Below are positions 28,994 through 62,029 of a DNA stretch of 64,000 bases, in pieces. Numbering within the stretch: the first letter of the stretch is position 1; every line of letters begins with the position of its first letter. Both the position numbers and the translations under genes were made by a program. Below the pieces are notes generated by a model, which worked only from the letters and a program-made list of their open reading frames with translations, had not been told where the DNA came from and ran no database searches. Source of the DNA: Candidatus Saccharimonadales bacterium. GTDB lineage: Bacteria > Patescibacteriota > Saccharimonadia > Saccharimonadales > DATKHC01. The stretch lies in assembly GCA_035510465.1 (NCBI GenBank), contig DATKHC010000001.1, forward strand, positions 70,799 to 134,798. Reading direction: 5' to 3'.

Positions 28994-29219
28994 TCTTATG
29001 TACTATTTTAACTATCCGTTTTTATTTGAGATTTCTTTTATAACGTAATCTATCAATTATGTTTATAAACCTAGTGCTTGTCAAGGAAAGACTCTCTATT
29101 AACAAGAAGTAATTGAATCTTTTTCTAAGCAAATTTTGCCAAACATTTACAGTAACTTGATATGCTGAATATTTTAGGTGCTAGAATATACCTTAATGGT
29201 AACGACTGACAAGGGTCGA

Positions 29220-44111: not shown

Positions 44112-44391
44112 AGCAGTTTATAACTGTAGATAGGTTGTTGTGCCTAGGTCAAGGATAAAATTTAGGTCACGTGAAATTAACAATATTTACCCACCAATCT
44201 TAGCAACTTTTCCACCTCTGACCAAACCTTTTCCACTATTTTACAGATAGCCGCACAACGTGTGTATAAGTTTCATCTGGGGCAAGTTGCTTTTTTAGTT
44301 TATGGATTGTCGCTTAATTCACTGTGGAAAAGTAACCTTGGACACGTTATAGTTAGTGGATAAAATCTGTGATTGGGGGAGATTAACAAAC
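44112..44391. other. candidate oriC segment (DnaA-box cluster) between rpmH and dnaA
   Basis: Five 9-mers lie within 2 mismatches of TTATCCACA or its complement: 44208-44216 and 44229-44237 (TTTTCCACC/T), 44261-44269 (TGTGTATAA), 44323-44331 (TGTGGAAAA) and 44355-44363 (AGTGGATAA). Confidence 0.55.
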
Positions 44392-45750: not shown

Positions 45751-45839
45751 GTACAAGAATTGGTTTTACTTGTTTATAAGTCTGGTTGCTTGTGGGTACT
45801 TAGCTTACTTATACACGTGTGTTGTTTTTAGTTTTTATA

Positions 45840-45876
45840 GGTTGTTTATACAAAGGTTGTTTATACAAAGGTTGTT
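45840..45876. repeat. 15-bp direct tandem repeat GGTTGTTTATACAAA, 2.5 copies, in the dnaA-dnaN spacer
   Basis: Read directly: ggttgtttatacaaa ggttgtttatacaaa ggttgtt. Each unit contains TTATACAAA (2 mismatches to a DnaA box). AT-rich tracts follow at about 45900-46000. Confidence 0.85.
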
Positions 45877-46021
45877 CTTTATTTTTCCTAAACTTATACC
45901 ACCCCCAAATAATTATAATAACAGTTTAATTAGTGTCTTTGTTCACATTAAACACAGGCCTATTAATAACAACTATGAAGTTTAATAATTTAATTACTTA
46001 TTGGTGGGGTTAGGAAAAAAC

Positions 46022-47116
46022 ATGAAACTACAGGTCACCCAAGAAAACTTAAATAAAGCTATTTCTAGTGTCGCTAAAACTGCCTCGAGTAGATCAACCC
46101 TACCAATTCTATCTAATCTACTACTTAAAACCACAAACAACAGACTAAGTGTTATAGCCACCAACCTGGATATTGCAATAACTCATTTTGTTGGTGCGAA
46201 AGTCCAAAAAGAGGGGTCAATAACAGTTCCTGCTAGGTTAACTCAAGATTTTATTTCAAACTTACCAAATGATGTAGTTGAACTTGAATTAGAAGACAAA
46301 AAACTACACATAAACTCCAAAATGTATCAATCGGTTATAAACGGCATAAGTTCATCCGAATTCCCTGTTATGCCAGCGATTAATAAAGGCCAAAGCCTAT
46401 CAATTAACTCAAAAAAACTAAAAACTGGTTTAAGCCAAGTGGTTGTGGCAGCATCAAACGACGACGCAAGACCTGTTTTAACAGGTGTTTATATAAATGG
46501 TTTCAATGGAAAAATATATCTAGTTTCAACTGATAGTTACAGGTTAGCAGAAAAAAACCTGGCACCAGCAAAAACAGACTTTAGCTTGCTAATACCCGCA
46601 TCTGCGATTAATGAGTTGCTGCGAGTCATGGGAGACGCAGAGGGGAACACCACTATAACTTATGATGACCAGCAGGTACTTTTCAAAGTTGATGAAATTG
46701 AACTAGTCGCAAGATTAATAGATGGAAAATATCCAAACTACCGTGACCTTATCCCAAAACAGTTTGAAACAACCATAACTCTACCAAAATCTGAACTAAC
46801 TAATATAACCAAAATCTCAGCTTTATTCGCACGGGAGAGCGCGGGTTCCATAACAATCAACGTAGACGAGAAAAAACAAGAAATTAGTATTCATTCAGTA
46901 GCATCGCAGTTAGGAGAAAACACTTCTAGCGCCAAAGCTGAAGTTAAAGGCGGTGGAGTTGTAACTATGAATTCCCGCTACCTACTTGATGCACTACATG
47001 TAATACCCGAAGAACAAGTTGTTTGTAAATTTAATGGGAAACTTGACCCAATAGTTATCGCTTCGGCCTCAAAAAACCCGGACTATACCCACATAATAAT
47101 GCCACTAAAAAGTTAA
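46022..47116 (+). CDS. dnaN: DNA polymerase III beta sliding clamp
   Basis: MKLQVTQENLNKAIS...A..R.TLPILSN.LL and three-domain length (364 aa). The ATG at 46022 is preferred. Confidence 0.95.
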   Translation: MKLQVTQENLNKAISSVAKTASSRSTLPILSNLLLKTTNNRLSVIATNLDIAITHFVGAKVQKEGSITVPARLTQDFISNLPNDVVELELEDKKLHINSKMYQSVINGISSSEFPVMPAINKGQSLSINSKKLKTGLSQVVVAASNDDARPVLTGVYINGFNGKIYLVSTDSYRLAEKNLAPAKTDFSLLIPASAINELLRVMGDAEGNTTITYDDQQVLFKVDEIELVARLIDGKYPNYRDLIPKQFETTITLPKSELTNITKISALFARESAGSITINVDEKKQEISIHSVASQLGENTSSAKAEVKGGGVVTMNSRYLLDALHVIPEEQVVCKFNGKLDPIVIASASKNPDYTHIIMPLKS

Positions 47117-47142
47117 ACAAATATAAGAGGTGGTAAAACTCA

Positions 47143-48201
47143 ATGATTGTTGATATCCACCTCCAAAATTTCAGATCATATATAGACGACTCTTTTGAAT
47201 TTTCAGACAAAGTTAACATTATTGTTGGGCCTAACGCCAGTGGTAAAACAAACCTACTAGAAGCTTTAATCACCGTCACTTCTGGGTCTTCCTATAAAGC
47301 CCAGGACAAAGAGCTGATAAATTTCAAAAGTGACTGGACCAGACTCGAATCACGTACGGAAAACCAAGAAAGGATTGTTAAAATTAGCTTAGACAACGAG
47401 AAACGAGCCACAAAAACCTACGAAATAAATAATCAACCATACAAGCGACTAGTACTTGGTAAGACAATACCAATAGTGCTATTTGAGCCTAATCATCTAC
47501 TCTTATTAAATGGCCCCCCAGAGCTTCGTCGCAACTTCATTGATGCGGTTTTGGAGCAAACTAAAGCTGGGTTTAAGACATTAAAACTTAAATATAAAAG
47601 AGCTTTAAGGCAACGGAACAGTTTACTAAAAAGAGGCATTATCACAAACAACCAACTTTTTCCTTGGAACTTAAGGTTGAGTGAATTAGGTGGCCAATTA
47701 GTAGCTGAACGGCTCAATGTTACTAGTGTTTTTTCAGATCAAATATCCGATAACTATAAAGCAATTTCAAAGACCAAAGACAAGATCAGTTTGAGATATC
47801 ATTCTGGGTGCAACCTAGCTAATTACGAAAGCGACCTTCTTGATAAATTGGAGGGATCAATTCAAACTGACTACGAAAGAGGTTTCACCTCGTTTGGCCC
47901 TCACCGCGATGACCTTGAAATCTCAATCAACAATCACCCAGGATCAGAAACCGCTTCGAGAGGTGAAGTCAGAACAATCATACTAAGCCTGAAAACCACC
48001 GAAGCCCAAATTATCGAATCAGCAAGAGAGCAAAAACCAATCCTGTTATTTGATGATGTTTTCAGTGAGCTCGACGGAGCCAGAAGATTGTCTTTAGTTG
48101 AATTCCTGAGTAATAATCAGTCATTTGTGACAACCACAGATGCTGATATAGTGGTACAGCACTTTATGGGGTCAAACTTCATAATTCCCCTTAACGCCTA
48201 G
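47143..48201 (+). CDS. recF: DNA replication/repair protein RecF
   Basis: Walker A GPNASGKTNLLEAL, SMC-like signature SRGEVRT and Walker B LLFDDVFSELD. dnaA-dnaN-recF synteny. Confidence 0.9.
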   Translation: MIVDIHLQNFRSYIDDSFEFSDKVNIIVGPNASGKTNLLEALITVTSGSSYKAQDKELINFKSDWTRLESRTENQERIVKISLDNEKRATKTYEINNQPYKRLVLGKTIPIVLFEPNHLLLLNGPPELRRNFIDAVLEQTKAGFKTLKLKYKRALRQRNSLLKRGIITNNQLFPWNLRLSELGGQLVAERLNVTSVFSDQISDNYKAISKTKDKISLRYHSGCNLANYESDLLDKLEGSIQTDYERGFTSFGPHRDDLEISINNHPGSETASRGEVRTIILSLKTTEAQIIESAREQKPILLFDDVFSELDGARRLSLVEFLSNNQSFVTTTDADIVVQHFMGSNFIIPLNA

Positions 48202-48211
48202 ACCCTGAATC

Positions 48212-48985
48212 CTAACTTCCAACACTAAGTATGCCTGAATCGAAAACTTGACTCCCTGAGGATGTATTGTGCAAGAACAATTCACCTGAATTTAAGCCAC
48301 TATACTGGAAGCTTGCGTTATAAACTGTCTCGTTAATCGAAACGGAAAAGTTTATAACAAAAATACCATCAGGGTTGATTGGGCCAGTAGTAATGCTACT
48401 TTGGTTAATAATAGCGCTACTGAGTTTTATGTTTGTAGTTTGGGCAAAAGCAGTCACCCCCTGTTCATAGTCTTGTACTTGCTGGGTTGATAGACCTTGG
48501 TTGATTAAGCCACTGGTATCACCAAAATCTGGCGGCTGGTCACTGGCAGTGGGTGGCTGCTGAAAAATGGTTTTTTGTTGACTAACAGGCAAGTTAGCAT
48601 ACGGTACGTATTTTGGTGTAAATGTGAAAACGAGGTTTTTTAGTTGTTTCCCAAGATTGTCCGTTACTGAGACAACAGTTAACGTATACCTAGTACTTTG
48701 GTTTAGGGGGTAACTTAAGCTCAAGACCAACGCTTTATAACTGACTTTTGTTGAAGTCACTATCGAAGGATTCGAAACAACAATCAAATTACTACTTGAA
48801 ATTGGTCGATTGAAACTAATCTTTATAGAAGAACTGTCTGTGGCAACATTACTCATGCCCGGATTAGTGCTAACTACATGAAAAGTTGAGGCGTAGTAAA
48901 TTAACCAAATTACCCAGAATACAACAAGTACGGCAGCCAACACGAAGACTATTCTTGTTCTTTTTTGAAATATCGAATGATTCAT
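48212..48985 (-). CDS. membrane-anchored protein with Ig-like (SbsA/Big_5-type) domain; last gene of the T4SS-like operon
   Basis: N-terminal TM (IVFVLAAVLVVFWVIWLIYY). This is followed by VVSTNPGMSNV...IKISFNRPI...YTLTVVSVTDNLGKQL, a typical bacterial Ig-like pattern. Confidence 0.5.
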   Translation of the reverse strand: MNHSIFQKRTRIVFVLAAVLVVFWVIWLIYYASTFHVVSTNPGMSNVATDSSSIKISFNRPISSSNLIVVSNPSIVTSTKVSYKALVLSLSYPLNQSTRYTLTVVSVTDNLGKQLKNLVFTFTPKYVPYANLPVSQQKTIFQQPPTASDQPPDFGDTSGLINQGLSTQQVQDYEQGVTAFAQTTNIKLSSAIINQSSITTGPINPDGIFVINFSVSINETVYNASFQYSGLNSGELFLHNTSSGSQVFDSGILSVGS

Positions 48986-48993
48986 AAGCCTCC

Positions 48994-50352
48994 TTAATCT
49001 GGCGACACATACCCAACAATGTTATCTGAATAATACCCCGAAAAAGTATCTAAAGACACCACAGAACCGCTAGCTGGGTGCTGTGAGCCGTATGCATAAT
49101 CCGGTGTACCATTTCCACCTTGATCACCACCAATATAATTCGATTCACCACCACTTGACGAAACAAAGATATTGATGTGATACCAAGGATTTGCCTGAGA
49201 GGGGTCGTAGTGTAGGGCTAAGTCGCCAGGTTGAGGAGTATAACCACTGCTCTCAGGATGCCAGTGGAAATTTTGATTTTGTTGACCAAGCACTTGAATA
49301 GAAACTACTGATGGTTGTCTCCAACCACCATCTAACCCGCCAGAAAATGGGTAGCCCGCTTGGTTATATATCCAACTCACGAAATCGGCGCACCATTCTT
49401 CATAATTATTATCGGTATATTTCAAAAACCCAGTAGCTGCGTAGATGAAGTCTGGATATGGTGAGTTATAATTAGGCTCGGCTTTCCATGTGGCGAGCTC
49501 TTTCTGGGCGTTGCAGACGATATTTTGGCGAGTTTGGCTTAAATTGGATGACGAAACAGAACTAGTAGTGCTAGTGGCCGTTGAGCTAGAGCAGTTGACA
49601 GTACTGCTGCTGCAATTCGAACTAGAACTAGTGGTTGATCCACTATTTCCCGATGCTCCACCGTATTTCGACAAAACTGACTGAGCATCACCTTCACGGT
49701 TCAGTAAGTATCCATCGTCTTGAGGAGGGTTGGTTACGCCTGAATTGGCAATGCCCCCTTCTTCTAACTCGGCTTCGACAAACTGAGTTGCTTGGTTTAA
49801 GTCGGTCATCCCCTGCAAGGATTTAACCCAGTCTTGTACTCCAGTAAGGCCAGTACCACCCATTTCACCCCAGACCATGGCTAGTTGGGTAGAAAGTTCG
49901 TAAATGGGGGAGGTAATCTTAAGACTTTGAGCAATTTGTATGGCCTTGCCGCCTGGCGTCCATTGGGCAATACCCCAACCTCCGCTACCAGCGTCATTTG
50001 GGTTGTTGCTATCGCCACCTATCTGCATTTCGGTTGGGTCTACGTGGGATTCATCCATAAGGTTGCCAACCACAGCCGACGCTTGAATCGGGCTTAAACC
50101 GTTTTGTATGAAAAAGTTATATGCTTGTTGTTCGTTATCATTGCCGGTTAGCGCTGTAACAGTAGCGCCTCCTGCACAGACAGCAGCAACAGCGGCGTCT
50201 GGGTCATAAAACGGAGTCTTTCCGAGGAATGAATTGTAATCAGTGCCCGTATAAGCAAGGGCTTGGCTAGAGGGTAAAATAATCAAACAAACAGCCACTA
50301 ACAATAGCAACACAGCACGTTGATAACGGTTAATTTGTCGCAGGCGATGCAC
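48994..50352 (-). CDS. secreted bifunctional peptidoglycan hydrolase: lysozyme-like (phage-tail-lysozyme-type) N-domain plus CHAP C-domain (VirB1 functional analogue)
   Basis: Signal peptide ending ALA-YTG. The N-domain has VVGNLMDESHVDP...GWGIAQWT. A Ser/Thr-rich linker follows. The CHAP Cys context is EWCADFVSWIYNQAGYPF, with a later His (GDLALHY). Confidence 0.72.
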   Translation of the reverse strand: MHRLRQINRYQRAVLLLLVAVCLIILPSSQALAYTGTDYNSFLGKTPFYDPDAAVAAVCAGGATVTALTGNDNEQQAYNFFIQNGLSPIQASAVVGNLMDESHVDPTEMQIGGDSNNPNDAGSGGWGIAQWTPGGKAIQIAQSLKITSPIYELSTQLAMVWGEMGGTGLTGVQDWVKSLQGMTDLNQATQFVEAELEEGGIANSGVTNPPQDDGYLLNREGDAQSVLSKYGGASGNSGSTTSSSSNCSSSTVNCSSSTATSTTSSVSSSNLSQTRQNIVCNAQKELATWKAEPNYNSPYPDFIYAATGFLKYTDNNYEEWCADFVSWIYNQAGYPFSGGLDGGWRQPSVVSIQVLGQQNQNFHWHPESSGYTPQPGDLALHYDPSQANPWYHINIFVSSSGGESNYIGGDQGGNGTPDYAYGSQHPASGSVVSLDTFSGYYSDNIVGYVSPD

Positions 50353-53011
50353 CGTTTTGTATGTCCGTTAATTGTTGAATTGTTGTGTCGTAGGCCTGTG
50401 CAACTCTCCACCTAAATACCAAATTACCAGGGTCATTATCGGGTGGACACACCGTGTCTATGGGGTCGTTGGTAGTTAAATTACACGGTGAACAAAGTCC
50501 AGTAGCTGCAGGTATTACATCTCCGTTTGAGTCTCGCTGAATTTGACCACTAGATAATAGGTCTCCCATTGTTTTGTTTATACTGTAACAAGTACTAGCA
50601 TATTTACCTGCTATAGAACTCTCTTGCCCGCTTTTGTCTAGAATCATTTGATTCTCAAGCGGTTGATAGCTTGGGTCAGTCTTTATTAGACTTTCCTCCG
50701 GAGCACTCCACCCCCACTGCACGATCCCATAGTCTTGATTGTCGATATTGGTGGAAGCTACTGCGTTTGCTCGTCCAACAAAAGGTAGTTTTGAAATCCA
50801 ACTCAGTGGCTGTAGGATATCTCCGATTTTTGAAAACATCGAACTAAAAAACGATTTAACGGGGATTGATGCAATGGTTGACACTACATGAGAAGTGAGT
50901 GAACTAGGATTACTTAGCGCAAAATACCTCTGGTAAGCGTTTTTCTTAGAGTTGAGAGAGGCAAGGTATGATGTGTCTTGTGAGCTTGTAGCTGCAACTT
51001 CCGAATTTGTGAGAGGCCTACCATAAAACTGCAATTGCTCTAATTGGTTAGCACTTAAATTATTACCAGCATCAGCATCATCAGCAAACTCAGCATTAGT
51101 AGATAGACCACTGTCTGTGGCACCCATTGATGAAACCACTATAAGCTTTGACAGCAAGGTTGCCCCGGCTATGGTAGCAGCCTTACCCAAAGTTTCCTTA
51201 GAAAAAGTACTGGTGAAGATATCCTTTAGAGCATCTTTATTTATTAATTGTTCGGAGAGCTCTGAGGCTATCTGAGATATTACTTCCTGGACACTTAATT
51301 CTGCGCCTTCTTCAGCAGTAGTTGCTCCACCACCAGTGAAGACGTCGGCTATGGCATTTCCCAGAACATTAACTGTAGCCACGGTTATAACTCCCTCAGG
51401 ACTAGTTATGGCTTGGCAGGACGGTTTTATGGCACTGTTAAATGAGCTGGCGATCCAACCAGGCAAACCAACTGAATTAAGGACTACATTGAATAAGCTA
51501 TATGTACCTGATGCGCCAGTTTGTGGACTTAATACTGAAGTGGTATCGATCGTTTGGCCACTGGCTCTCTCTTCCGGTATTGATTGATCTATATTGCCCA
51601 ATTTCCAATTAAAGGCACCTACAGCCTGAGCATTGGTATCACCAGCTTTTTGCTGATCACCGGCGCTATCCACTAAATAACCGGTTTTTTCCATTTCGGC
51701 ATCTTGAGCATCTATAGTTGAGCCAGAGTTATCGATTGAACCATCGTAAATAATGCATAGTGGCAGTGCGACAGCTTGGGCAGGCGATATTGCTCCGAGA
51801 ATATCATTCCACCAACTACTGGCCGTGTCGTTTGCTAAATCGGTGGCTACAACAGCAGGTTCCTCGCCGTCGTTGCTAACTATCGTTTCCAGACACTGCG
51901 CATTCTCCACGCAATTGGTTTCGTCAGCTGCGGCAGCTTTAGCGTCGCTGTTGTCTTGACTAACAGTTGAGCTACCATCAGCAGCTTGATCATCTATGGC
52001 TTTATAGGCGTCTTGTTCTAATTCCGCCTCAGCTTGGGTAGGAGTGTCTTTTGTGTAATCAGCTAGTTCTTGGGGCGTCCAGGCCTCTAGTTCTATACCT
52101 AGGCTCGGCAAAATCTCATCAACGTTGATCGGCCCTCTTATGACTGTGCTAATCCCATCGGTATTTGTAGATAGATCACTTTCAAAAGCTGACTGAGCTG
52201 AGCTTGGATTGCCTGTAAAATCAGCTGCTCCGTGCTCTTGTTGGGCAAAAGCGGCTGGGGTTTTTGCGGTGTCAGTAATAGCATCAGCCTGTCCATCTTG
52301 GGTAATCCCATTTAATTGGCCAGATGGACTATAGTCCAATTGCAATAAACCTTCATCAGGGTTGCTAACGCTGTCTGTTAGAGCGTTTTCAGTTGTTTGA
52401 GGATTGTAGGTTTCAATTTCTTTAAGTGTAGTGTCGCTTTGAGAATCAATTTCATTTTCAAGAGCAGCTTTTTCTTCAGGGCTGGCAGCTTCTATTGCCA
52501 GCTTCTCTTCAGTTATTTCGGCTGAGTCATCCGCAAAGCTTCTGGCGACTCTAGCGAATTGCCAATCGATGATATTTTGCTCAAACCCTGGTATTAAAAG
52601 TGAAGCCGCAAATATTAGGAGAATTGCAATTACCATAAGACCCCCTCCACCCCCTCCACCTATTAACAACAACTTGGTTTTCTTTGAACCGGTTTTTTTG
52701 ATCTTTGACTTCAACGCATTTTTTGCCTTTGATGAGTTATAAAGACCCCCACTAGTTGATGTACCAGATCCTTCTCCGTCCTCATCCTCAGACGAGGAGG
52801 TAAAAATTGCAGGCTCACCACCACCGGTTGTTGGCTTGTAGAAATTTGGGGAACCTACACCCTCTGTTTGGTTATCACTACCTTCGCCTGTTGCACTTGT
52901 TCTGTTTCCCTGGGGAGCCTCACCAGTTGCACTTGTTCTGTTTCCCGGGGAAGTTTCGTATTGCCTAATTTTATCTAGACCTACAGATTTTTTGTCTTCA
53001 TCATCATCCAT
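50330..53011 (-). CDS. large acidic single-pass membrane protein of unknown family, T4SS-locus associated
   Basis: 893 aa. The acidic low-complexity N-terminus has a 12-aa tandem duplication (GNRTSATGE x2). A Gly7 run and TM (LMVIAILLIFAASLLIPG) follow, then a 750-aa D/E/S/T/A-rich ectodomain. It overlaps the hydrolase gene by 23 nt. Confidence 0.5.
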   Translation of the reverse strand: MDDDEDKKSVGLDKIRQYETSPGNRTSATGEAPQGNRTSATGEGSDNQTEGVGSPNFYKPTTGGGEPAIFTSSSEDEDGEGSGTSTSGGLYNSSKAKNALKSKIKKTGSKKTKLLLIGGGGGGGLMVIAILLIFAASLLIPGFEQNIIDWQFARVARSFADDSAEITEEKLAIEAASPEEKAALENEIDSQSDTTLKEIETYNPQTTENALTDSVSNPDEGLLQLDYSPSGQLNGITQDGQADAITDTAKTPAAFAQQEHGAADFTGNPSSAQSAFESDLSTNTDGISTVIRGPINVDEILPSLGIELEAWTPQELADYTKDTPTQAEAELEQDAYKAIDDQAADGSSTVSQDNSDAKAAAADETNCVENAQCLETIVSNDGEEPAVVATDLANDTASSWWNDILGAISPAQAVALPLCIIYDGSIDNSGSTIDAQDAEMEKTGYLVDSAGDQQKAGDTNAQAVGAFNWKLGNIDQSIPEERASGQTIDTTSVLSPQTGASGTYSLFNVVLNSVGLPGWIASSFNSAIKPSCQAITSPEGVITVATVNVLGNAIADVFTGGGATTAEEGAELSVQEVISQIASELSEQLINKDALKDIFTSTFSKETLGKAATIAGATLLSKLIVVSSMGATDSGLSTNAEFADDADAGNNLSANQLEQLQFYGRPLTNSEVAATSSQDTSYLASLNSKKNAYQRYFALSNPSSLTSHVVSTIASIPVKSFFSSMFSKIGDILQPLSWISKLPFVGRANAVASTNIDNQDYGIVQWGWSAPEESLIKTDPSYQPLENQMILDKSGQESSIAGKYASTCYSINKTMGDLLSSGQIQRDSNGDVIPAATGLCSPCNLTTNDPIDTVCPPDNDPGNLVFRWRVAQAYDTTIQQLTDIQNGASPATN

Positions 53012-53069: not shown

Positions 53070-54974
53070 TCACTGACGAAGCTCAATATCGCCGGATGGT
53101 TGGTTGAGCTCACCTTGTTCTGGAGCAGCTCCCTGGTTGACTGGGCCAGGAGTAGTACTAATTAGACCGGCCTCAGTCTGGCTGGCTACCACTTGGATAT
53201 GAACATGGTTCTGTCCAGCGAAAAACAAACCCTGGCCGATAGGGAACTGACTTAAACGTTTTGTTTCCTCTGAAGTTAGCTTAAAAACATTCGACAATAG
53301 ATCAACGGCTGATGGAGACTGTTTAAGCAACAATTGCATTGAAGCGTTGGCTACAATTGCCCGGCCCATTCTCGAGCCGATAAAATCTTCAACATCCTGG
53401 CTAATAGTGGTAATGCCTAAATTATATTTTCTGGCTCGTTTGGCCAGAGAAAACATAAAGTTAGCTGAATCTTCATATTTCATTAACTGCCAGGCCTCGT
53501 CGATTACTAAAAGTCGTTTTTTCTGATCAGTTTTAGTCTTATTCCAGATATAGTTCAACACTATATACATGGCTACAGGCCGCAGTTCATCCTCAAGGTC
53601 TCTAATATTAAAAACTACCATAGGGTTATTTATGTTGATGTTGCTTTGCTGAGAAAATATACCCGCAAATGTCCCCGAGGTATATTTACGTAACCTTTGG
53701 GCGAGTTGTGGCCCAGTGCCTCCCATGTGCAGTAAAACATCGTACAGGTCAGTAATGGTTGGTGGGGTACCCGTATGGGTGAGCGGATCGTTGCTAATGC
53801 CAGCGTTAGAGTAGGTTTGAATTAGGGCACTATCGAGGTCTGATTCCTCAACTGGGGACAAAGCCGGTACTACCGCACTAGTAGTGTTGCCCAACATCTG
53901 AACTTGAGCGCCTCCCATCATTAGCCTAAGTAGTCCATGAAGAGTAATAAGATTACTCCGCAATGCATTGTCAGCTTCTTCGGTGTCAATTACCTGTGGC
54001 AAATCAAACGGATTAATTCTGACACTGGAATTTAGACTAAGACGTACGTAAGCTCCTCCTACCGCCTCAGACATTCTTTGGTACTCATTTTCTGGGTCGA
54101 TGATAAACACCTCAGTCCCAAACATGATACTTCTAAGAGCTTCCAATTTTACGGCAAATGACTTGCCGGCTCCGGATTTGGCAAATACAACTGAGTTGCT
54201 ATTTTCTAAACTGAATCTATCAAACAAGACCAACCCCGAATTATGCATATTAACGCCGTATAAAATACCCTTGTCGTCGCTTAAATTAGCGCTAGTGAAA
54301 GGGAAACTAGTACTCAGTGCGCCAGTCCCGAAGTTACGCCTGATTTGTAGTTCGTCAGTTGCTTGTGGGATTGTGCTATTTAGGCCTTGTTCTTGTTGAG
54401 CGGAGGCGGGTTTAGAATAGATTAATTGCTGGCCGAGTAGTGTTTCGACCTTATGGCCAACAAATTCGAGCTCATCCAAGCTGCCTCCAAAAATAGTGAA
54501 ATAGAAACCGAGCCTGAAGAAATGTTCTTCGCCAACCTGAAGCTTGTCCCTCATTTCCTCAGCATCAGATATAGCGGCTTGTTTACCCGGATCTCTAACA
54601 CGACCTTTTTCGGCGTCAATTTGTAGCCCAGCTTCTAGCTGGCCAACCTTTTTTCTCAAGTTCTCTAAAACGACCTGAGCGTTGACGGGGTATATGAAGT
54701 GGGATATATCTATAACCTCATCTATGTTAATAAGTGGGCTTAACCAGCCAGTAGAAACTTGTCTTGGATACCCATAAACGTAGTAGCTACGGGCATATCG
54801 GGTGCCAATTTGGAAATAGTTGCTTTGAAAGTCTATAAAACTTGGAGCTATGAAATCACGAAGAGCAGTTATGCCTTTTTCAAATGCCTCATTTACCTCT
54901 TGCTGCTCTCTGAGGCGTTGTTCCTGAACAACGGTTACTGGGTCAATTCGCCTTTTTCTCCACCCTAAAGCCAT
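53070..54974 (-). CDS. virB4: type IV secretion VirB4/TrsE/PrgJ-family ATPase
   Basis: Walker A FAKSGAGKSF, IIDPENEY and Walker B RLLVIDEAWQLM. The N-domain pattern YYVYGYPRQVSTGWLSPL...DISHFIYP is typical of Gram-positive-type VirB4. Confidence 0.9.
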   Translation of the reverse strand: MALGWRKRRIDPVTVVQEQRLREQQEVNEAFEKGITALRDFIAPSFIDFQSNYFQIGTRYARSYYVYGYPRQVSTGWLSPLINIDEVIDISHFIYPVNAQVVLENLRKKVGQLEAGLQIDAEKGRVRDPGKQAAISDAEEMRDKLQVGEEHFFRLGFYFTIFGGSLDELEFVGHKVETLLGQQLIYSKPASAQQEQGLNSTIPQATDELQIRRNFGTGALSTSFPFTSANLSDDKGILYGVNMHNSGLVLFDRFSLENSNSVVFAKSGAGKSFAVKLEALRSIMFGTEVFIIDPENEYQRMSEAVGGAYVRLSLNSSVRINPFDLPQVIDTEEADNALRSNLITLHGLLRLMMGGAQVQMLGNTTSAVVPALSPVEESDLDSALIQTYSNAGISNDPLTHTGTPPTITDLYDVLLHMGGTGPQLAQRLRKYTSGTFAGIFSQQSNININNPMVVFNIRDLEDELRPVAMYIVLNYIWNKTKTDQKKRLLVIDEAWQLMKYEDSANFMFSLAKRARKYNLGITTISQDVEDFIGSRMGRAIVANASMQLLLKQSPSAVDLLSNVFKLTSEETKRLSQFPIGQGLFFAGQNHVHIQVVASQTEAGLISTTPGPVNQGAAPEQGELNQPSGDIELRQ

Positions 54975-54977
54975 ATG

Positions 54978-56003
54978 TTATAACCCCTCTACGTCTAAAT
55001 TAGGTTGAGGAGCCAAACCAGGGCCTTTAGTAACTACAGGGGGGTTTAAATCGTTAAAGTTCTTGAGTTGCTGTCTGACAGCTGTATCAGGGTTGTAGGT
55101 GTCATAGTAAAGTTCAATGAGCTCCTGTGTATCCAGAGGCAAGCCTTTGATATTACATTGAGCCAGCCCTCCTAAAATAGCCTCAACACGAGTTCTAAGC
55201 TCGTCCTTAGCCTTGGCTAAATCGGCCTCATTAATGACTACCGTTTTCTCTTTTTTCGAAAACAGAGCTCCAAGTCCTGTAAAAAAGTTCTTACTTTGAG
55301 CAATAGCTTGTTGAATGTTCTCAACAGGTGAGTAAGGAACGATTATATAAAAACCCTTGTCCATTATGTTGGTATGTTGAGACAAATCGACCATAAAATT
55401 AAGATAATCTTCCATTAAAACCGCCAGCAACATGTTGTCTTGTTCTAGTCGCATTTTGTCCAGTTTGTTTATGTACGGAGAAATATCCACACGCTCGGAG
55501 TGAATGAAAATCTGGATAGGGAAATACATTGCGTTCAAAAAACCCTGGTAGGCAAACTCAACAGCCTCTTTTTCGTCCGGGCTCATAAGGTCGAAATTAA
55601 TCGGTTTTACCATGATGACTGATCTATACGTGCCATCGTTTAAAATCACAATCCCATCTCTAATCTCGGCTATTTGTAGAGCATTTTGAGAACTGTTAGG
55701 GTTAACTTTTTTGGGTATTGGGGCAACTCCTTGCTGGGCTGGTGTGGGTGCGGGTGGCAATTGATTAGCAGAGGGTATAAAAGGTGGCTGCCCAGATACA
55801 GGGGGATTAAAGCTAGCACTGCTACCATTGCTAGGCTGATTAAGAATCTGGTTGGCCTGAGCTTGAAAATCAAAAGTTGGAGCTGCTGGTTCGGTTGGGT
55901 TGTTTGTAAAATCCTGCGCAGAATAAGTCCCATCGGCGTTTAGCACCGTTGGGTCTTGACCAGTTGTGTTACTGTTTGGATTTGTTTTAGGCTCAGGATT
56001 CAT
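54978..56003 (-). CDS. hypothetical T4SS-associated protein: Pro/Gln-rich N-terminus plus domain resembling a VirB4 N-terminal (non-ATPase) domain
   Basis: 341 aa. DGIVILNDGTYRSVIMVKPINFDLMSPDEKEAVEFAYQGFLNAMYFPIQIFIHSERVD resembles the N-terminus of Tn916-class VirB4 proteins, from memory. No Walker motifs. It ends 3 nt before virB4. Confidence 0.45.
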   Translation of the reverse strand: MNPEPKTNPNSNTTGQDPTVLNADGTYSAQDFTNNPTEPAAPTFDFQAQANQILNQPSNGSSASFNPPVSGQPPFIPSANQLPPAPTPAQQGVAPIPKKVNPNSSQNALQIAEIRDGIVILNDGTYRSVIMVKPINFDLMSPDEKEAVEFAYQGFLNAMYFPIQIFIHSERVDISPYINKLDKMRLEQDNMLLAVLMEDYLNFMVDLSQHTNIMDKGFYIIVPYSPVENIQQAIAQSKNFFTGLGALFSKKEKTVVINEADLAKAKDELRTRVEAILGGLAQCNIKGLPLDTQELIELYYDTYNPDTAVRQQLKNFNDLNPPVVTKGPGLAPQPNLDVEGL

Positions 56004-56050: not shown

Positions 56051-57115
56051 TTAGTGCAATGATACTACTACTTCTTCAGGGAGATCATCTTTAGGAGGAC
56101 GTTTCTTCGCTTCGCTTGCTATAGTTGCGACACTTTTATTATTATCAGCAGCTAAAGATGACACTTTTTTACTTTGGGCATCGCTTTGTTTAACCCCACT
56201 TTTTTTCAAGCCCGTATCAGTTTTTGATAGCGGCTCCAAAACATGAGTGTGACCGTAAGCTGGGTTAGGCCCTTGGTGTGCTTTCTTGATTTTTTCTGCT
56301 AACTGAGGAGTTATAGATGCGTTTTGAGTACTTTCGTCATCGTCATCACCCGGACGGTAAACAGTTAAGTCAGAAAAAGTTTGATGTCTAGGGTCAGATG
56401 CCTGTAGGGTAGTCGGTTGATTCATGAACCAATAGTCTTGTTTCGTTTGTTTGTTGTCTTTGGACTCGGGGTGGTCAACCAAAGTTTCATGATATTGCCG
56501 TTGTTCGTGTTCGTTTTGCTCAATAGCTTGAGCTAAATGCTGAGATGTCGGATTGGCGTTATCCAAAATATCGTCTTCTAAAGTCACATCATAGCTAGGG
56601 ACGTCCTGCGGTAGAGTACTTACATTTATTAAACGGTCAGAATCCTCCTCGGTAGACATATAGTCTGGTTGGTTATACATATTGACCCCAACGTTTTTTA
56701 CAGCCCAGCCTCTCGTATCAATTGTGTTTGCAAGCGCCTTTAAGCGGCTTTTCGCCTCTGTTTCCGAAAAGTTTTTAGTCATCTGCCGAGCAACAACAGC
56801 AGGAGCAGTAATCTTGACTAACTCTTGATAACCTCCTTGTTTCCAAATCCGTCTTCTGGGTTTCAGAAAAAACCGTACGCGGGCTAGAAGCCATATTTCG
56901 TTTGGTTGATCCCTGCCAAAGGGAATTGCTAGTGCCCCGAATAGGATAATGGGCAAAAACAGTGGAATGATGGCTACTATGCTGATTGAAGCAAGCTTGT
57001 AGTCTATGAACATCAAAACTACAGTTATGCCTGCGTAAATGAACTGACGCAGGGTCAGGGGCCCGAGTAGCTTATCCTCCGCTTCTATGTCTTGTATTAC
57101 TTTATAAGTTGCCAT
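56051..57115 (-). CDS. PrgI-family (VirB3-like) membrane protein with long C-terminal extension
   Basis: The N-terminal MATYKVIQDIEAEDKLLGPLTLRQFIYAG followed by two TM helices matches the PrgI pattern. The remaining 250 aa or so are polar and charged. Confidence 0.6.
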   Translation of the reverse strand: MATYKVIQDIEAEDKLLGPLTLRQFIYAGITVVLMFIDYKLASISIVAIIPLFLPIILFGALAIPFGRDQPNEIWLLARVRFFLKPRRRIWKQGGYQELVKITAPAVVARQMTKNFSETEAKSRLKALANTIDTRGWAVKNVGVNMYNQPDYMSTEEDSDRLINVSTLPQDVPSYDVTLEDDILDNANPTSQHLAQAIEQNEHEQRQYHETLVDHPESKDNKQTKQDYWFMNQPTTLQASDPRHQTFSDLTVYRPGDDDDESTQNASITPQLAEKIKKAHQGPNPAYGHTHVLEPLSKTDTGLKKSGVKQSDAQSKKVSSLAADNNKSVATIASEAKKRPPKDDLPEEVVVSLH

Positions 57116-57154: not shown

Positions 57155-60127
57155 CTACGCCGGTGGTTCGGTAGGTGGTCCTTGTGGTTGTCCTGTGCCA
57201 CTGGCTATGTTCTGATCTGTAAACTGACCACCTCTACCTCTTAAGTTCTCTTTCTGATAATCCTCTATTTCCTTGGCCAAACCCATTATCCTATTGACAG
57301 CCTCTTCAGCAAATTGTTTAGTCTTAGGATCAGTATAAGCCCCAGGTGCGTAGGTCATAGCCAATTGTTCCAAAGAAGCTCGTCTTTCTCTGTCGGCTCT
57401 CTGGTTGATAATAACGACTTGATCTTGTGCTTCTTGCTGGGCCTGCGCCTGAACCGCGGGAGGCTGATTTGCAGCAGCAGCAACTATTTGTTGAGCTACT
57501 CGTTGACCCTCAGCAGTAGCATTTGCCTTTACGTTGCCAACGCGTTCGGCAATACCTTCCATGGATTCTGCAACGGCGTCAAATGAAGTACCATCCTTAC
57601 GATATTCAGTGTACGGCTTAAGACTGTTTGTCACGCTTGGGCCTCCTCTAGCCAAATTGGCACCAAGTCTTTGGCGTGCGTCGGTTGGTTTTTTATCATA
57701 TAAGGTTTGGTAACTACTGACGACATTGTTTTTCAGTTCCGAAGTGTAAGTTATGTAGTTTCCAGCGTTCTTTGAGGTGAAGATTAGATCTCCCCAAGCC
57801 GCGGCCTTGGCTGATCTATCTTGCTGCGAGGTTCCGTACATATCATTTAGTTTTTCGAGGGAAGCACCAGATAGTTTACCAAAACTCGCATTTACCTTCA
57901 TGGCACCTAGGATCATATCTTTTCGGCCAGCATATTTAGCATACATGGCTAAACCATCGGCCTTGTCAGTTTCGCCTGCATCTCTCAGCTCTTTAACACG
58001 ATTTTGTAGTGATCCTAGAGTACCGCCGTGATTTATGAACTCATTTCCTGACCCATCGTCTAACAATCCCTCTTGTTGGAGAGTCTTCGCGGCTTCGTTG
58101 ATACTCCCTGCCATACCGGTAGATAAGGCGGACCGACCTTTCAGGGCGTGCTTTCCTGGGAGTAGTGCTGAAGGCTGAGTAACATATGCGAGCCCAGCGT
58201 TTAAACCCCTGTTGTATCTCTCGTTAAATCTCTGACCCCTCTTAAACTTATTAATACCTGGGATCTTGGCTCCAGGGTACCTGTTTTCTCTCTTCATCTT
58301 ACCCCAGTTTTCGGCCAATTTCCTCTTTCTAAAGTTATTAAGTGGCTTATTGGCGGCTCGCTGCAAATGTGTAGCCAGACTACCAGTTGCGGACAATAAA
58401 CCCCCAGCCCACTTAAACGTAAACGGAATCATAAAGTATGGTCCGAAATAGGCGATGATGGCAACCATCTCTTGAACTAGGCCAGTATTACCCCCCGAGG
58501 TAGTTACAGCCGCAAACACTCGACCAATCGCGATTATACCGGAGATGATTGGGAACATTAGAAGGGCTTTGCTTAGATTTTCCCACCACAATTTCCATAC
58601 TCTCTGGGTGCCGGGAAGGATATACATGGCAATAGCAATGGGTGCAAAAATTGCTAGGAATACTACAAGAATCTCTCGAAAGGTTAACAGAACAAAGGCC
58701 AAAATTACCGCTATAGCAGCAGTCAAAACAATGCTCAAGATACCAATAAGACTCAAACCTACCAAACTGGCTGCGCTCAGCAGAACCAGTGCTGTCGAGC
58801 CAGTTTGACCGATTTGTATCGTACCAATGGACGTAAACGGTGTATAAATAAGTGCTCTAATACCTTGCCCCAGTCCATCAGAAACCTGAATCAATACCTG
58901 TATTATTTGCCAGGACAGGGAAATGCCAATAACAGCAATTAACATACGAGGCAGCACTTTTTTAATGGTGTAGGCATCAAAAGCTTCGTAACCCAAAGCC
59001 TGTGATATAACCATTACTAAAGCCGCTATAACGACTATGGCAATTGCGAGAGTTCGTAGACTTTCCCAAGCTTTATAGAAACCGTTACTCCCGGCTTGCT
59101 GGGCAGGTGTGTTTGATTGCCCGGCACAATTTGGGTTCTGTGACCCAGCTATCGTGCCGTTAAAGTACTGACAGCCATTTATATCTAACATACCAACTAT
59201 TGCGCTGTCCAAAGTGCCGATTAACTTAGATGCAGTATCGACGATCGGACAAAACAACCAAGTCAGAGGATTAAAATCAACGACACAATTCAATGCAGGT
59301 CCGGATTCGGCTTGCGCACTGCTTGGAGTACCAGAAGGAGGGCCAGGTGCGGTTAAGGAAGCAAGGGTATAGGCGCCATTTTGAACTGAGCCACCATTTG
59401 GGCAGTTATAGTTGTATTCTGCCGCTACAGTAGCCGTTAGACCACTCGGTAGAGTTCCATATCCATGACCACAATTTTGATAAACCGAGATGCTTGGCGG
59501 AGTATAGTTCTCGTCGGCATTAGAGTTGCTGAAAGTTGGGCTACCCCATTCTTGGGAATCTGAAGGTTCACCCGGATAGCATGGTACGTAGTATGGTCCA
59601 ACTTGACCAATGGTAAAACCACTAGAATCTACAACTGAAAATGTCCAATCGTTTTGGGGTGTGTCTGTACATGCAGCCAGAGATCCAGCCGCAGTGCCAC
59701 TGCCACTGGTGGCTTCATAAAAGGTTCTATCATCCCCCGTAACAATAATCTCGTAGGTATTTGTTAGCGGTTCAGTAACTGGTGTTTCATTACAATGTCC
59801 TTCTTGTTTAGGTGGGCAGGTAGGCGTTACTTGCTGGGTTGTTACTTGGTTGCCGCTTACTGACAGAGTCCCAGTTGAATTACCGCCATCGGGACCAGGG
59901 GAAGGAGCAGCCTGCCGAGTTGCGATTACAGTGACCCCAGAACCGCTGACAGTCGAGGGATTAAGATGAATGAAAAACTCCTCATAGTTAGAAGGAACAC
60001 CTACAGGAGTCTGAACAGGAGTATCACCCAAAACTTTATGATTGCCCAGGAACAAGAAGAACCCCATGGCAACTAATCCAGTCAAGAAGACAATATTTAA
60101 ACTGATTTTCAATTTGTGTTTTAACAT
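57155..60127 (-). CDS. giant polytopic VirB6/TrbL-like channel protein (PrgH/TcpH/ConG analogue) with Cys-containing ectodomain and large C-terminal cytoplasmic domain
   Basis: 990 aa. The signal/anchor is followed by a roughly 320-aa Cys-, Gly-, Pro- and Thr-rich N-domain. A block of 6-7 TM helices (aa 355-590) is Gly/Ala/Ile-rich like TrbL/VirB6. A 400-aa hydrophilic tail ends the protein. It is the first gene of the operon. Confidence 0.55.
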   Translation of the reverse strand: MLKHKLKISLNIVFLTGLVAMGFFLFLGNHKVLGDTPVQTPVGVPSNYEEFFIHLNPSTVSGSGVTVIATRQAAPSPGPDGGNSTGTLSVSGNQVTTQQVTPTCPPKQEGHCNETPVTEPLTNTYEIIVTGDDRTFYEATSGSGTAAGSLAACTDTPQNDWTFSVVDSSGFTIGQVGPYYVPCYPGEPSDSQEWGSPTFSNSNADENYTPPSISVYQNCGHGYGTLPSGLTATVAAEYNYNCPNGGSVQNGAYTLASLTAPGPPSGTPSSAQAESGPALNCVVDFNPLTWLFCPIVDTASKLIGTLDSAIVGMLDINGCQYFNGTIAGSQNPNCAGQSNTPAQQAGSNGFYKAWESLRTLAIAIVVIAALVMVISQALGYEAFDAYTIKKVLPRMLIAVIGISLSWQIIQVLIQVSDGLGQGIRALIYTPFTSIGTIQIGQTGSTALVLLSAASLVGLSLIGILSIVLTAAIAVILAFVLLTFREILVVFLAIFAPIAIAMYILPGTQRVWKLWWENLSKALLMFPIISGIIAIGRVFAAVTTSGGNTGLVQEMVAIIAYFGPYFMIPFTFKWAGGLLSATGSLATHLQRAANKPLNNFRKRKLAENWGKMKRENRYPGAKIPGINKFKRGQRFNERYNRGLNAGLAYVTQPSALLPGKHALKGRSALSTGMAGSINEAAKTLQQEGLLDDGSGNEFINHGGTLGSLQNRVKELRDAGETDKADGLAMYAKYAGRKDMILGAMKVNASFGKLSGASLEKLNDMYGTSQQDRSAKAAAWGDLIFTSKNAGNYITYTSELKNNVVSSYQTLYDKKPTDARQRLGANLARGGPSVTNSLKPYTEYRKDGTSFDAVAESMEGIAERVGNVKANATAEGQRVAQQIVAAAANQPPAVQAQAQQEAQDQVVIINQRADRERRASLEQLAMTYAPGAYTDPKTKQFAEEAVNRIMGLAKEIEDYQKENLRGRGGQFTDQNIASGTGQPQGPPTEPPA

Positions 60128-60307
60128 GAATTGAGGCCCACAACTTTAACTGGTTTAGCCCAGTTAGCACTTTTAGCAGAGGCAGCAAGGCTGTCCCTTA
60201 GCACTTTATTTAATCTCAACGAGCAAATAAATTTATTAACAATTACTTGTTCTTTGCACGGCATTGCTCAAGGTTGTTTATACCATAAAAGTCATCTAAA
60301 CATAAGC

Positions 60308-60336
60308 TTGCTGAAGGCAGTCAAAATCAGTATAGT
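60308..60336 (+). promoter_or_regulatory. candidate sigma-70-type promoter for the pilin array
   Basis: TTGCTG (60308-60313), 17-nt spacer, TATAGT (60331-60336), about 78 nt upstream of the first pilin ATG. Pattern match only. Confidence 0.35.
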
Positions 60337-60413
60337 AATAAAAATAAGGTATCAGAGTATAAAAGTGCTCACTTTTTCTAAATATAAAGAACCTGTAAAA
60401 ACAAAAATCAAGG

Positions 60414-61112
60414 ATGAAAGTTATCAGAAGCACACTAAACTTATTTGCAAAAACCTCTTTTTTGAATTCAATTTCGTTAATCCTGGCCCTAGTTTTTGGG
60501 ATATCGATATTTCAAGGGCATACTTTTGCCGCATCTGGAGGAGTGTGCCATGACAGTTTTTCGAACATTTCCTACAAGTGTGGCACAGCGGGCATTAACC
60601 CCTGTAGTTTTATTCCGATACAGGGGCAAAGTCCAAGCGGTCAGGGTAATTGTGACCCTTCGGCGTGTGCAAGCCAATCATGTCCTTCAGCCTCAATTTG
60701 GACATTTGACCCAACTCAGTGTTATCTTCTGTCCACTGTGCCCAACAGTTCTGCTGAGCAGTGGGTAGGTGGTCAAAATTGCTCAGGCGCAGACTACACA
60801 ACTAATGTTCAATCTACCACCATACCATCCAACGTAACTCCACCGGATGCAGCAGCTAACTGTAGTACTAATTGTAACTTGATAACTGAATACTTAAATC
60901 CAATAATCAATTTCTTGTCTGCGGCAGTTGGCATAGTGGTCGTTATGATGATCGTTGTTGGCGGTATTCAATATTCGTCATCCGGCGGTAACCCGCAATC
61001 CGCAGCAGCCGCTAAGAAAAGAATAGCCAATGCTATTTTAGCCGCTTTTGCCTTTTTGTTTTTGTATGGCTTTCTACAGTTTATAGTTCCCGGGGGACTT
61101 TTTAATGGCTAG
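60414..61112 (+). CDS. VirB2/TrbC-like T4SS pilin paralogue 1, with extended 10-Cys ectodomain
   Basis: Signal peptide ending TFA-AS. A 130-aa head with 10 Cys is followed by a C-terminal TM-loop-TM hairpin (IVVVMMIVVGGIQYSSSGGNPQS...AILAAFAFLFLYGF). Confidence 0.65.
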   Translation: MKVIRSTLNLFAKTSFLNSISLILALVFGISIFQGHTFAASGGVCHDSFSNISYKCGTAGINPCSFIPIQGQSPSGQGNCDPSACASQSCPSASIWTFDPTQCYLLSTVPNSSAEQWVGGQNCSGADYTTNVQSTTIPSNVTPPDAAANCSTNCNLITEYLNPIINFLSAAVGIVVVMMIVVGGIQYSSSGGNPQSAAAAKKRIANAILAAFAFLFLYGFLQFIVPGGLFNG

Positions 61113-61134: not shown

Positions 61135-61551
61135 GTGGATATTTTTTCTTCAATCGCACCAGCAATTAAACTGTTTGCTGACAGTTGCGGAGGTAGTAGT
61201 ACTACCTTCTTTGGTTTACCAGTTTGGTATAAATACCTAGCGATTAAAGCGAGTTCGACCAGCGCTTGTAACTTCAACGGCTTTAGTTTGTTCAACGGAA
61301 GTAATTTTGCCCCAGATAATATACTGCTAATTCTCTTAGCCGTACTTGACGACCTATTAATTATTGCTGGCATTGTTGCGGTAGTCTTTGTTATATATGG
61401 TGGCGTTCGCTATATCCTAAGTAGCGGAGAGCCAGAGAACGTAAAAGCAGCTCAATCAACTATCCTCAATGCGTTAATAGGGCTAGTAATTAGCGCAGTA
61501 GCTGCTACTCTTGTGAATTACATTGGTTTTGCCTTTGGTGGCGGAAAATAA
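61135..61551 (+). CDS. VirB2/TrbC-like T4SS pilin paralogue 2 (no obvious cleavable signal peptide)
   Basis: GTG start. 2 Cys in the N-terminal part. The motif FFGLPVWYKYL is present. Hairpin IVAVVFVIYGGVRYILSSGEPENVKAAQSTILNALIGLVISAV. Confidence 0.6.
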   Translation: MDIFSSIAPAIKLFADSCGGSSTTFFGLPVWYKYLAIKASSTSACNFNGFSLFNGSNFAPDNILLILLAVLDDLLIIAGIVAVVFVIYGGVRYILSSGEPENVKAAQSTILNALIGLVISAVAATLVNYIGFAFGGGK

Positions 61552-61561
61552 AGGTTGTAAA

Positions 61562-62029
61562 GTGGCTAAATTCAAGACCCAATCACCGAAAAGACGACAC
61601 AAACTACCCGTACTGGTACTGTTATTTATTTTTGGGCTAACGCTGATGTTTGGCCGGGCTGCCTCAACCTCCGCGCAATCACTGTCTCTAGGAGATAAGT
61701 TGCTAAATGTAGCACAAACGAGTCCTCCTTGTTCCTGCTCTTCAAGTTCTACAAGCGTAAACCTCTGCTCATTACCTGGAAGTTGCACGGACCTAAGTAA
61801 CCCATCAAACTCAGCAGCTGCTATAAAAACTGCTCTAAACATACTGTTCTCGATACTTGGAGCCATAGCACTACTTATAGTAACCATAGCTGGTTTCAGG
61901 TATGTAATTTCTAGAGGTGAGCCCCAAGAAGTTTCCAAGGCTAAAGACACCATCCTCTACGCCTTAATTGGGCTGGTGGTCTGCATGGCCGCTCTAGCAA
62001 TAGTTAACTTTGTAGCGGGTAACGTATGA
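61562..62029 (+). CDS. VirB2/TrbC-like T4SS pilin paralogue 3
   Basis: The frame is open from 61523, but the GTG at 61562 gives a proper signal peptide (KRRHKLPVLVLLFIFGLTLMFGRAASTSA-QS). 4-Cys head. Hairpin LLIVTIAGFRYVISRGEPQEVSKAKDTILYALIGLVV. Confidence 0.65.
   Translation: MAKFKTQSPKRRHKLPVLVLLFIFGLTLMFGRAASTSAQSLSLGDKLLNVAQTSPPCSCSSSSTSVNLCSLPGSCTDLSNPSNSAAAIKTALNILFSILGAIALLIVTIAGFRYVISRGEPQEVSKAKDTILYALIGLVVCMAALAIVNFVAGNV

Follow-up and report, generated by a model that had tools for sequence, protein, structure and literature searches.

A probable extended VirB6 subunit in the oriC-proximal type IV secretion locus of a Candidatus Saccharimonadales bacterium

Type IV secretion systems (T4SSs) encoded near dnaA have been described across the phylum Patescibacteria, where the loci contain VirB4, TrsD, PrgI/VirB3, VirB6 and VirB2-like pilins, with the VirB6 homologues adjacent to virB4 (Quinonero-Coronel et al. 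2025, PMC12102498). The T4SS of Southlakia epibionticum (SEML1_0006-0019) is essential and contains a pilin array, and neither a coupling protein nor a relaxase is recognisable in it (Wang et al. 2023, PMC10633639). Its essential gene SEML1_0011, which lies directly upstream of PrgI, encodes a product of 998 amino acids (aa), which is annotated from its structure as a T4SS protein whose C-terminal domain is ARM-like (PMC10633639). Most patescibacterial VirB6 homologues match the VirB6 profile of mating-pair formation (MPF) type T, MPF_T, and not PrgH, and monoderm T4SSs lack VirB7/9/10 (PMC12102498). VirB6 proteins with 5 or more hydrophobic helices and one or more large hydrophilic domains are called extended VirB6 (Alvarez-Martinez & Christie 2009, as cited in PMC12857230), and a 2025 review lists the 'extended VirB6' as an established class that is functionally unexplained (PMC12857230). 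Here we analyzed a gene for a 990-aa protein in a stretch of 64,000 nucleotides from a Candidatus Saccharimonadales bacterium (contig DATKHC010000001.1, positions 70,799 to 134,798), which is called the window below.

The locus is the already published oriC-proximal T4SS of Patescibacteria, and it shows synteny with the essential cluster SEML1_0004-0019 of S. epibionticum. It carries the pilin array, VirB6, PrgI, TrsD, VirB4 and the hydrolase near dnaA, and neither a type IV coupling protein (T4CP) nor a relaxase was found among the 20 large open reading frames (ORFs) of the window that were scanned. The initial annotation of the stretch had recognised a VirB6-like protein and overlooked that the locus is the described Patescibacteria T4SS with a pilin array (PMC10633639, PMC12102498). 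Within this locus, the 990-aa protein very probably serves the chromosomal, oriC-proximal T4SS of Saccharibacteria as its polytopic membrane subunit of VirB6 type, in the form of an 'extended VirB6'.

The ORF (57155..60127, minus strand) runs from an ATG to a stop codon at 57155-57157 and is a complete coding sequence for an extended VirB6-like (TrbL_3) protein of 990 aa. The identical protein is found in NCBI as the hypothetical protein VMR34_00715 of a Candidatus Saccharimonadales metagenome-assembled genome, and the identical product is also carried on a 19-kb Logan contig. From the N-terminus, a signal-like segment is followed by a Cys-bearing outer region, approximately seven hydrophobic helices, a basic linker and a helical tail, and all 10 Cys residues (positions 104, 112, 153, 183, 219, 242, 281, 293, 319 and 334) precede the first core helix. 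The translation agrees with the three-region layout drawn in the initial annotation, and the Cys motifs quoted there are present in residues 31-350. Large hydrophilic extensions stand on both sides of the transmembrane (TM) block, namely an outer region of about 320 aa and a C-terminal tail of about 400 aa, as in the extended VirB6 class.

The polytopic membrane core was assigned to residues 353-590 (58358..59071, minus strand) by hydropathy and AlphaFold2 (AF2) prediction and contains about seven hydrophobic helices. Hydropathy blocks were found at residues 353-383, 391-416, 442-508 and 517-545, the third of which fits two to three helices, and a further hydrophobic segment at approximately residues 553-575 was recognised from the sequence together with the AF2 helices. 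The AF2 model of residues 353-590 is a confident helical bundle, with a predicted local distance difference test score (pLDDT) of 85-97, and R358, Y386, P393, R484, P496, P505, W514 and P563 are invariant in the core. A precomputed match to the Pfam family TrbL_3 (PF19590) exists for the exact product (E<=1e-5) and also for 45 of 47 relatives. The commonest sub-threshold match among these 47 relatives is Pfam TrbL (PF04610), which was seen in 13 of them (best E 0.0019, profile positions 21-205 of 215).

For profile-profile comparison, a family core profile of 47 or 172 sequences was aligned by hhalign with a TrwI/VirB6 profile that was built from R388 TrwI, its relatives and ten diverse plasmid VirB6 genes. 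Residues 456-547 (58487..58762, minus strand) aligned with residues 142-236 of R388 TrwI/VirB6 with a probability of 77-82 % (P 1e-5 to 2e-5), whereas the reversed-profile controls gave P values of 0.04-0.2. The aligned stretches share the motif [AG]P...P.T.+..W, in which the invariant P496, T507 and W514 fall on the conserved P181, T and W199 of TrwI. When the AF2 model was compared with the PDB by Foldseek, TrwI/VirB6 chains accounted for 6 of the top 19 matches (probability 0.69-0.99, target TM-score 0.36-0.48). The TrbL_3 match, the sub-threshold TrbL matches, the hhalign and Foldseek results and the gene order of pCF10 together indicate that the protein is a member of the VirB6/TrbL superfamily. 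The TrbL/VirB6 character that had been assigned to the TM block in the initial annotation is thus supported by the PF19590 match, the hhalign P values and the position of the gene upstream of PrgI/VirB3 and VirB4, and the lack of any relation to VirB6/TrbL/ConG-type proteins, which the initial annotation had named as a ground for refutation, was not observed.

Several results weigh against this assignment. None of the matches of the model to TrwI by Foldseek reaches significance (E 0.17-1.3; no PDB match with E<0.1), and they cover the membrane core only, and the hhalign probability to TrwI is below 95 %, the usual confidence level, over only about 90 columns. Comparison of the core with the single sequences of PrgH, Tn916 Orf15 and TcpH by hhalign showed no signal. 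Local Pfam and NCBIfam scans of the 990-aa query gave no TrbL/VirB6 match, a profile search of the PDB sequences found nothing but coiled-coil noise from the tail, and the helix count between residues 442 and 505 is ambiguous, with one or three crossings. Note that PF19590 (TrbL_3) and PF26593 (TraC-like) never appear in the results of the local Pfam copy, although both are precomputed on proteins of this locus, so that negatives of this copy for the locus need care. When 72,556 plasmids were searched with the membrane core by tblastn, no match was obtained, which argues against a recent plasmid origin. A second word-indexed homologue search, in which the alignment was used, yielded no new members.

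Residues 31-352 are predicted to lie outside and the tail in the cytoplasm, as judged from hydropathy, the AF2 helices, the charge distribution and the Cys pattern; on these indicators, the protein is polytopic with five or more TM helices, the N-terminus outside and the C-terminus inside. Residues 1-30 (60038..60127, minus strand) comprise a Lys-rich start and a hydrophobic stretch ending in VLG/DT, as seen by hydropathy and family comparison, and may represent either a Sec signal peptide, which would be cleaved, or an N-in membrane anchor. A comparable N-terminal segment was present in 157 of the 168 family members that start with Met. Across 172 members, Cys makes up 2.0 % of the N-region and its count is even in 132, and the segment before the first TM helix has a net charge of -3.9 family-wide. 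The Cys pattern and the co-variation of C281 and C293 (see below) point to an N-region outside, and the positive-inside charge distribution points to a tail in the cytoplasm. The same orientation had been given in the initial annotation, and the signal-like N-terminus, the confinement of all Cys residues to the N-terminal part and the approximately 11 K+R after the last TM helix speak for it; no indicator predicted a cytoplasmic N-domain. As a separate observation on the window, Cys residues occur in exported domains and ectodomains, often as near pairs (the N-terminal part of the VirB6-like protein, the 893-aa protein, the hydrolase and the pilins, see below for the latter three), are absent from VirB4, PrgI, YidC and Jag, and make up 0.3-0.9 % of the other cytoplasmic proteins.

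The outer part of the protein consists of a variable and a conserved segment. Residues 31-278 (59294..60037, minus strand) form a G/T/S/P-rich, acidic, Cys-bearing and probably extracytoplasmic region, which is a hypervariable orphan. Gly, Thr, Ser and Pro account for 11.6, 11.3, 10.3 and 9.7 % of residues 31-350 (43 % together), and these residues contain 5 K+R versus 25 D+E. The pLDDT is below 50 throughout residues 31-278, with no confident fold, and strand-like aromatic patterns are visible in the sequence with no predicted fold. The length of the outer region varies from 2 to 578 aa across the 172 members, and 17 of them lack it, with 80 aa or fewer. BLASTP of the region against 252 other family members found no relatives, and BLASTP against itself and the neighbouring window proteins found no internal repeats and no similarity. 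The variable length, the loss in 17 members and the lack of relatives suggest that the outer region is exposed, fast-evolving and evolutionarily dispensable. The 'surface domain' of the initial annotation therefore holds as an exposed region but not as a folded domain, since residues 31-278 are modelled with low confidence, hypervariable and have no detectable relative within the family.

Residues 279-352 (59072..59293, minus strand), on the other hand, are a conserved juxtamembrane segment outside the membrane, which was recognised from the alignment and the AF2 model and contains C281-x4-NPLTW-x2-C293-P and a helix at residues 289-314. C281 and C293 are both kept in 45 of 47 members and both lost in the other two, and this joint presence or absence is the signature of a disulfide.

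After the last TM helix, a strongly basic linker with low pLDDT (residues 591-657; 58157..58357, minus strand) leads to the cytoplasmic tail (residues 658-990; 57158..58156, minus strand), which lacks Cys, is helical throughout and of the helical-repeat type, and has a Pro-rich end. The 65 residues after the last TM helix (residues 576-640) contain on family average about 11 K+R and have a net charge of +7.6. Residues 601-990 are hydrophilic (A 13, G 10, K 7, Q 7 and R 6 %), and neither Walker A nor Walker B motifs were found when looked for in these residues; a hydrophilic tail with no NTPase motif, as stated in the initial annotation, is consistent with this and with the all-helical AF2 model. 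The tail is present in all 172 family members, with a length of 288-518 aa, and is Cys-free in 171. Conservation is moderate over residues 637-836 and around residues 917-936. The tail of the 990-aa copy is divergent, with about 15 % identity to most members and BLAST matches to two members only. A tail-only AF2 model had a pLDDT of 62.5, and Foldseek found only generic helical repeats and designed proteins (best E 0.06), for which reason a specific tail fold or a likeness to coupling proteins was rejected. The helical-repeat likeness agrees with the ARM-like label on the S. epibionticum proteins. We also considered whether the lack of Cys could mark the tail as exported or translocated and rejected this, because cytoplasmic proteins of this organism are generally Cys-poor (VirB4 and PrgI have no Cys) and the basic linker argues for the cytoplasm.

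The family and its genomic setting were examined with a profile of the 990-aa family, which collected 11,410 representative clusters at E<=1e-3 and 7,318 at 1e-30. Synteny was compared in 80 loci from species-representative genomes, almost all of them from Saccharibacteria. Where the contig was long enough, the order of approximately six divergent pilins, the VirB6-like gene, PrgI, TrsD and VirB4 was near-universal, and the 893-aa protein and the hydrolase often follow VirB4. One genome (OY969576.1, 1.9 Mb) contains two family members, of which one (L073) is in a complete T4SS locus and the other (L055) is solitary, with no detectable pilin, PrgI or VirB4 neighbours.

Two other origins of the membrane core were weighed against membership of the VirB6/TrbL superfamily. 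The protein could be a permease of a transporter, for example of ABC-2 type, that merely lies beside T4SS genes: the KEGG-style labels of the S. epibionticum counterparts are K01992, SEML1_0013 is called 'ABC transporter permease' (score 0.575), the core is a generic helical bundle, and Foldseek also lists MATE and ZnT transporters with probabilities of 0.05-0.2. However, there is no adjacent ABC ATPase, neither ABC2_membrane nor any other transporter family occurs among the recurrent Pfam matches of the 47 members, and the TrbL_3 assignment, the hhalign result with VirB6 and the strict synteny with PrgI, VirB4 and pilins in 80 genomes point to the T4SS. An ABC-2 permease was rejected on the recurrent Pfam matches and the synteny, and we regard any transporter role of this kind as highly improbable. 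It is also quite improbable, if somewhat less so, that the protein belongs to the Gram-positive TcpH/ConG/Orf15 lineage (the VirB6 analogues of MPF_FA) and not to TrbL/VirB6 proper. TcpH (832 aa) and Tn916 Orf15 (725 aa) have the same overall layout, in which an N-terminal anchor is followed by an outside segment, then by a TM block and finally by a long hydrophilic C-terminal tail; in addition, the host is a monoderm with a VirB4 of the CD1110/MPF_FATA-like type (PMC12102498). The VQQPW motif common to TcpH and Orf15, in contrast, was found in none of 173 family members, and hhalign of the core with TcpH, Orf15 and PrgH gave P values of 0.04-0.15 and probabilities below 2 %, a weak negative because single sequences were compared. 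The detectable sequence link of the core runs instead to TrwI/VirB6, in line with the published matches to the MPF_T VirB6 profile.

The large extensions raise a further possibility, which was put forward in the initial annotation, that the protein is a three-in-one machine whose outer region and tail replace a VirB8/9/10-type scaffold and the coupling protein. No T4CP or relaxase gene is seen among the large ORFs of the window and both are published as generally absent from these loci, the tail is universal, and no NTF2/VirB8-like gene lies between the 990-aa gene and the pilins, unlike SEML1_0012 in S. epibionticum. Against this, the tail lacks an NTPase motif and its resemblance is to generic helical repeats only, the outer region is evolutionarily dispensable, as seen from its absence in 17 of the 172 members, and the 893-aa protein and a Big_5 protein, which are conserved in the locus, could fill scaffold roles. 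Since monoderm T4SSs normally lack VirB7/9/10, nothing needs replacing, and we consider such a substitution unlikely. Equally doubtful is a narrower proposal, in which the outer region could stand in for the missing VirB5, either as an adaptor specific to the lineage at the base of a T4SS pilus of Gram-positive type or as a host-contact module, and the tail could act as a cytoplasmic receptor that couples the split VirB4 to substrates where a coupling protein is missing. If this were true, one polypeptide would hold the specificity determinants of an essential conduit between epibiont and host.

For the extended VirB6 subunit that we favour, a working model can be drawn by analogy with R388 TrwI/VirB6. 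The ORF, the three-part layout, the family membership, the synteny and the topology indicators are shown by the present data, and what the model says on the oligomeric state, on a pilin platform and on the functions of the tail and of the outer region is inference. The N-terminus would be exported, so that the variable, acidic, Cys-bearing region lies outside, followed by the conserved helix, which is presumably stapled by the disulfide and may project into the wall. The chain would then cross the membrane about seven times and end in the cytoplasm with the basic linker and the helical-repeat tail of about 330 aa. Most likely, the membrane core forms an oligomeric central platform in the inner membrane, as in R388 TrwI, on which the VirB2-like pilins of the six-gene array may be lifted from the membrane and assembled, or substrates may be passed. 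The drive would come from the split VirB4 ATPase (TrsD-like protein plus VirB4) anchored by PrgI. The linker and the tail are most likely a docking surface for the TrsD/VirB4 ATPase or for substrates, and the variable outer region is most likely a module that spans the cell wall or faces the host.

No T4SS before that of Saccharibacteria had been shown to be essential to its own carrier bacterium. The system may be a conduit to the host bacterium, and its VirB6-like subunit is a likely hub for the pilins, the ATPase and any substrate. The 990-aa copy adds nothing fundamentally new, because the family, the Pfam assignment, the locus and its essentiality are all published. Our additions are incremental, namely the dispensable, orphan-like outer region, the co-varying juxtamembrane Cys pair and the universal Cys-free helical tail, and these three family-wide features offer handles for domain-deletion and topology experiments in a genetically tractable relative.

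The 990-aa gene is encoded together with VirB3 and VirB4 homologues, as PrgI and the split VirB4 lie immediately downstream. On the minus strand, it is followed by genes for a PrgI/VirB3-like protein of 354 aa (56051..57115; PrgI Pfam 1.3e-9), a TrsD/TraC-like protein of 341 aa resembling the N-terminal region of VirB4 (54978..56003), a VirB4 ATPase of the CD1110 family with 634 aa (53070..54974; 3e-101), a conserved membrane-anchored protein of 893 aa with no Pfam or NCBIfam family, which is the positional equivalent of SEML1_0007 (50330..53011), and a VirB1/PrgK-like cell-wall hydrolase with the Pfam domains Phage_lysozyme2 and CHAP (48994..50352). The Big_5 protein (48212-48985) is a further operon neighbour, and recF, dnaN and dnaA lie beyond the operon. 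Adjacent genes downstream of the 990-aa gene are separated by 3-58 bp or overlap, and upstream an AT-rich spacer of 286 bp (60128..60413) separates the operon from the divergent pilin array, which bears out the statement in the initial annotation that this is the first gene of the operon. A scan of the divergent spacer for sigma-70 promoters and terminators found nothing. The array consists of six tandem genes for VirB2-like T4SS pilins (PF18895; 60414..63390, plus strand), all above the Pfam threshold (E 1e-9 to 3e-15).

Some further observations were made on these neighbours. The T4SS operon adjoins recF-dnaN-dnaA (window 44356-50352), which places the T4SS next to the replication origin and agrees with the published Patescibacteria loci. 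VirB4 is split (53070-56003, minus strand) into the 341-aa TrsD/TraC-like protein and the 634-aa ATPase 3 bp downstream, and nearly all of the 80 loci show the same split. The 893-aa protein has one N-proximal hydrophobic segment and 8 Cys residues, four of which are clustered at residues 808-855; its S. epibionticum counterpart SEML1_0007 is essential and has a C-terminal Hedgehog/DD-peptidase-like domain. In the first pilin (60414-61112, 232 aa), the pilin hairpin is preceded by a Cys-rich ectodomain of about 150 aa, and related loci commonly begin their arrays with a longer pilin (160-330 aa, with one of 714 aa). The gene call of the Logan contig has no pilin at 61483-62029 and instead has an antisense ORF of 156 aa (61483-61953, minus strand) with no Pfam match. 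The plus-strand ORF at 61523-62029 matches T4SS_pilin (1.7e-14), suggesting that the wrong strand was probably chosen in the public call at 61483-62029.

The rest of the window encodes housekeeping and polysaccharide biosynthesis functions. A cell-surface polysaccharide cluster at approximately 10000-43500 contains Wzy_C, Bac_transf, several GT2/GT4 glycosyltransferases, Wzt-type ABC components, a GDP-mannose dehydratase-like gene, UDP-glucose dehydrogenase and DUF2142. Several large ORFs of this cluster (7363-9018, 17988-19985, 26739-28400, 29178-30518 and 31971-33761) have no family.

Among the systems with which the locus can be compared, pCF10 has the same gene order, prgH-prgI-prgJ(VirB4)-prgK(hydrolase), but its PrgH (266 aa) has neither extension, and hhalign against the single PrgH sequence gave P 0.11 and a probability of 0.5 %. 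TcpH of pCW3 and Orf15/ConG of Tn916/ICEBs1 are likewise large proteins that are anchored at the N-terminus and continue, after a TM block, into a long hydrophilic C-terminal region in the cytoplasm. Their genes are likewise near a VirB4 ATPase and a cell-wall hydrolase. These systems differ in being conjugative, with a T4CP and a relaxase and with no pilins, and TcpH and Orf15 have no detectable sequence relation to the 990-aa family when single sequences are used, nor is their VQQPW motif shared.

R388 TrwI/VirB6 (PDB 7O3V, 8RT9 and 8RTD) is the best fold match in the PDB and is likewise encoded with VirB3, VirB4 and VirB2-like pilins; the polytopic core and the motif block of [AG]P, P-x-T and W are common to both proteins. 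TrwI is a protein of 342 aa with neither a large outer region nor a long cytoplasmic tail, and it works in a diderm, where its partners are VirB5, VirB8 and a core complex of the outer membrane. The similarity is at the profile level only (P ~1e-5), and the E-values of Foldseek are not significant. The closest described counterpart is SEML1_0011 (with its paralogue SEML1_0013) of S. epibionticum. The two differ in that the outer region of the 990-aa protein is an orphan. The window has a single VirB6-like gene and lacks an NTF2-like gene, in contrast to the set of SEML1_0011, SEML1_0012 and SEML1_0013 in S. epibionticum. The likeness, 998 aa versus 990 aa here, is one of position, size and structure annotation (T4SS/VirB6 with an ARM-like helical C-terminal domain). 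Both genes occupy the same place, upstream of PrgI, the TrsD-like gene and VirB4, facing the divergent pilins and near recF-dnaN-dnaA, and from dnaA onward the window is syntenic gene by gene with SEML1_0001-0019 of S. epibionticum ML1.

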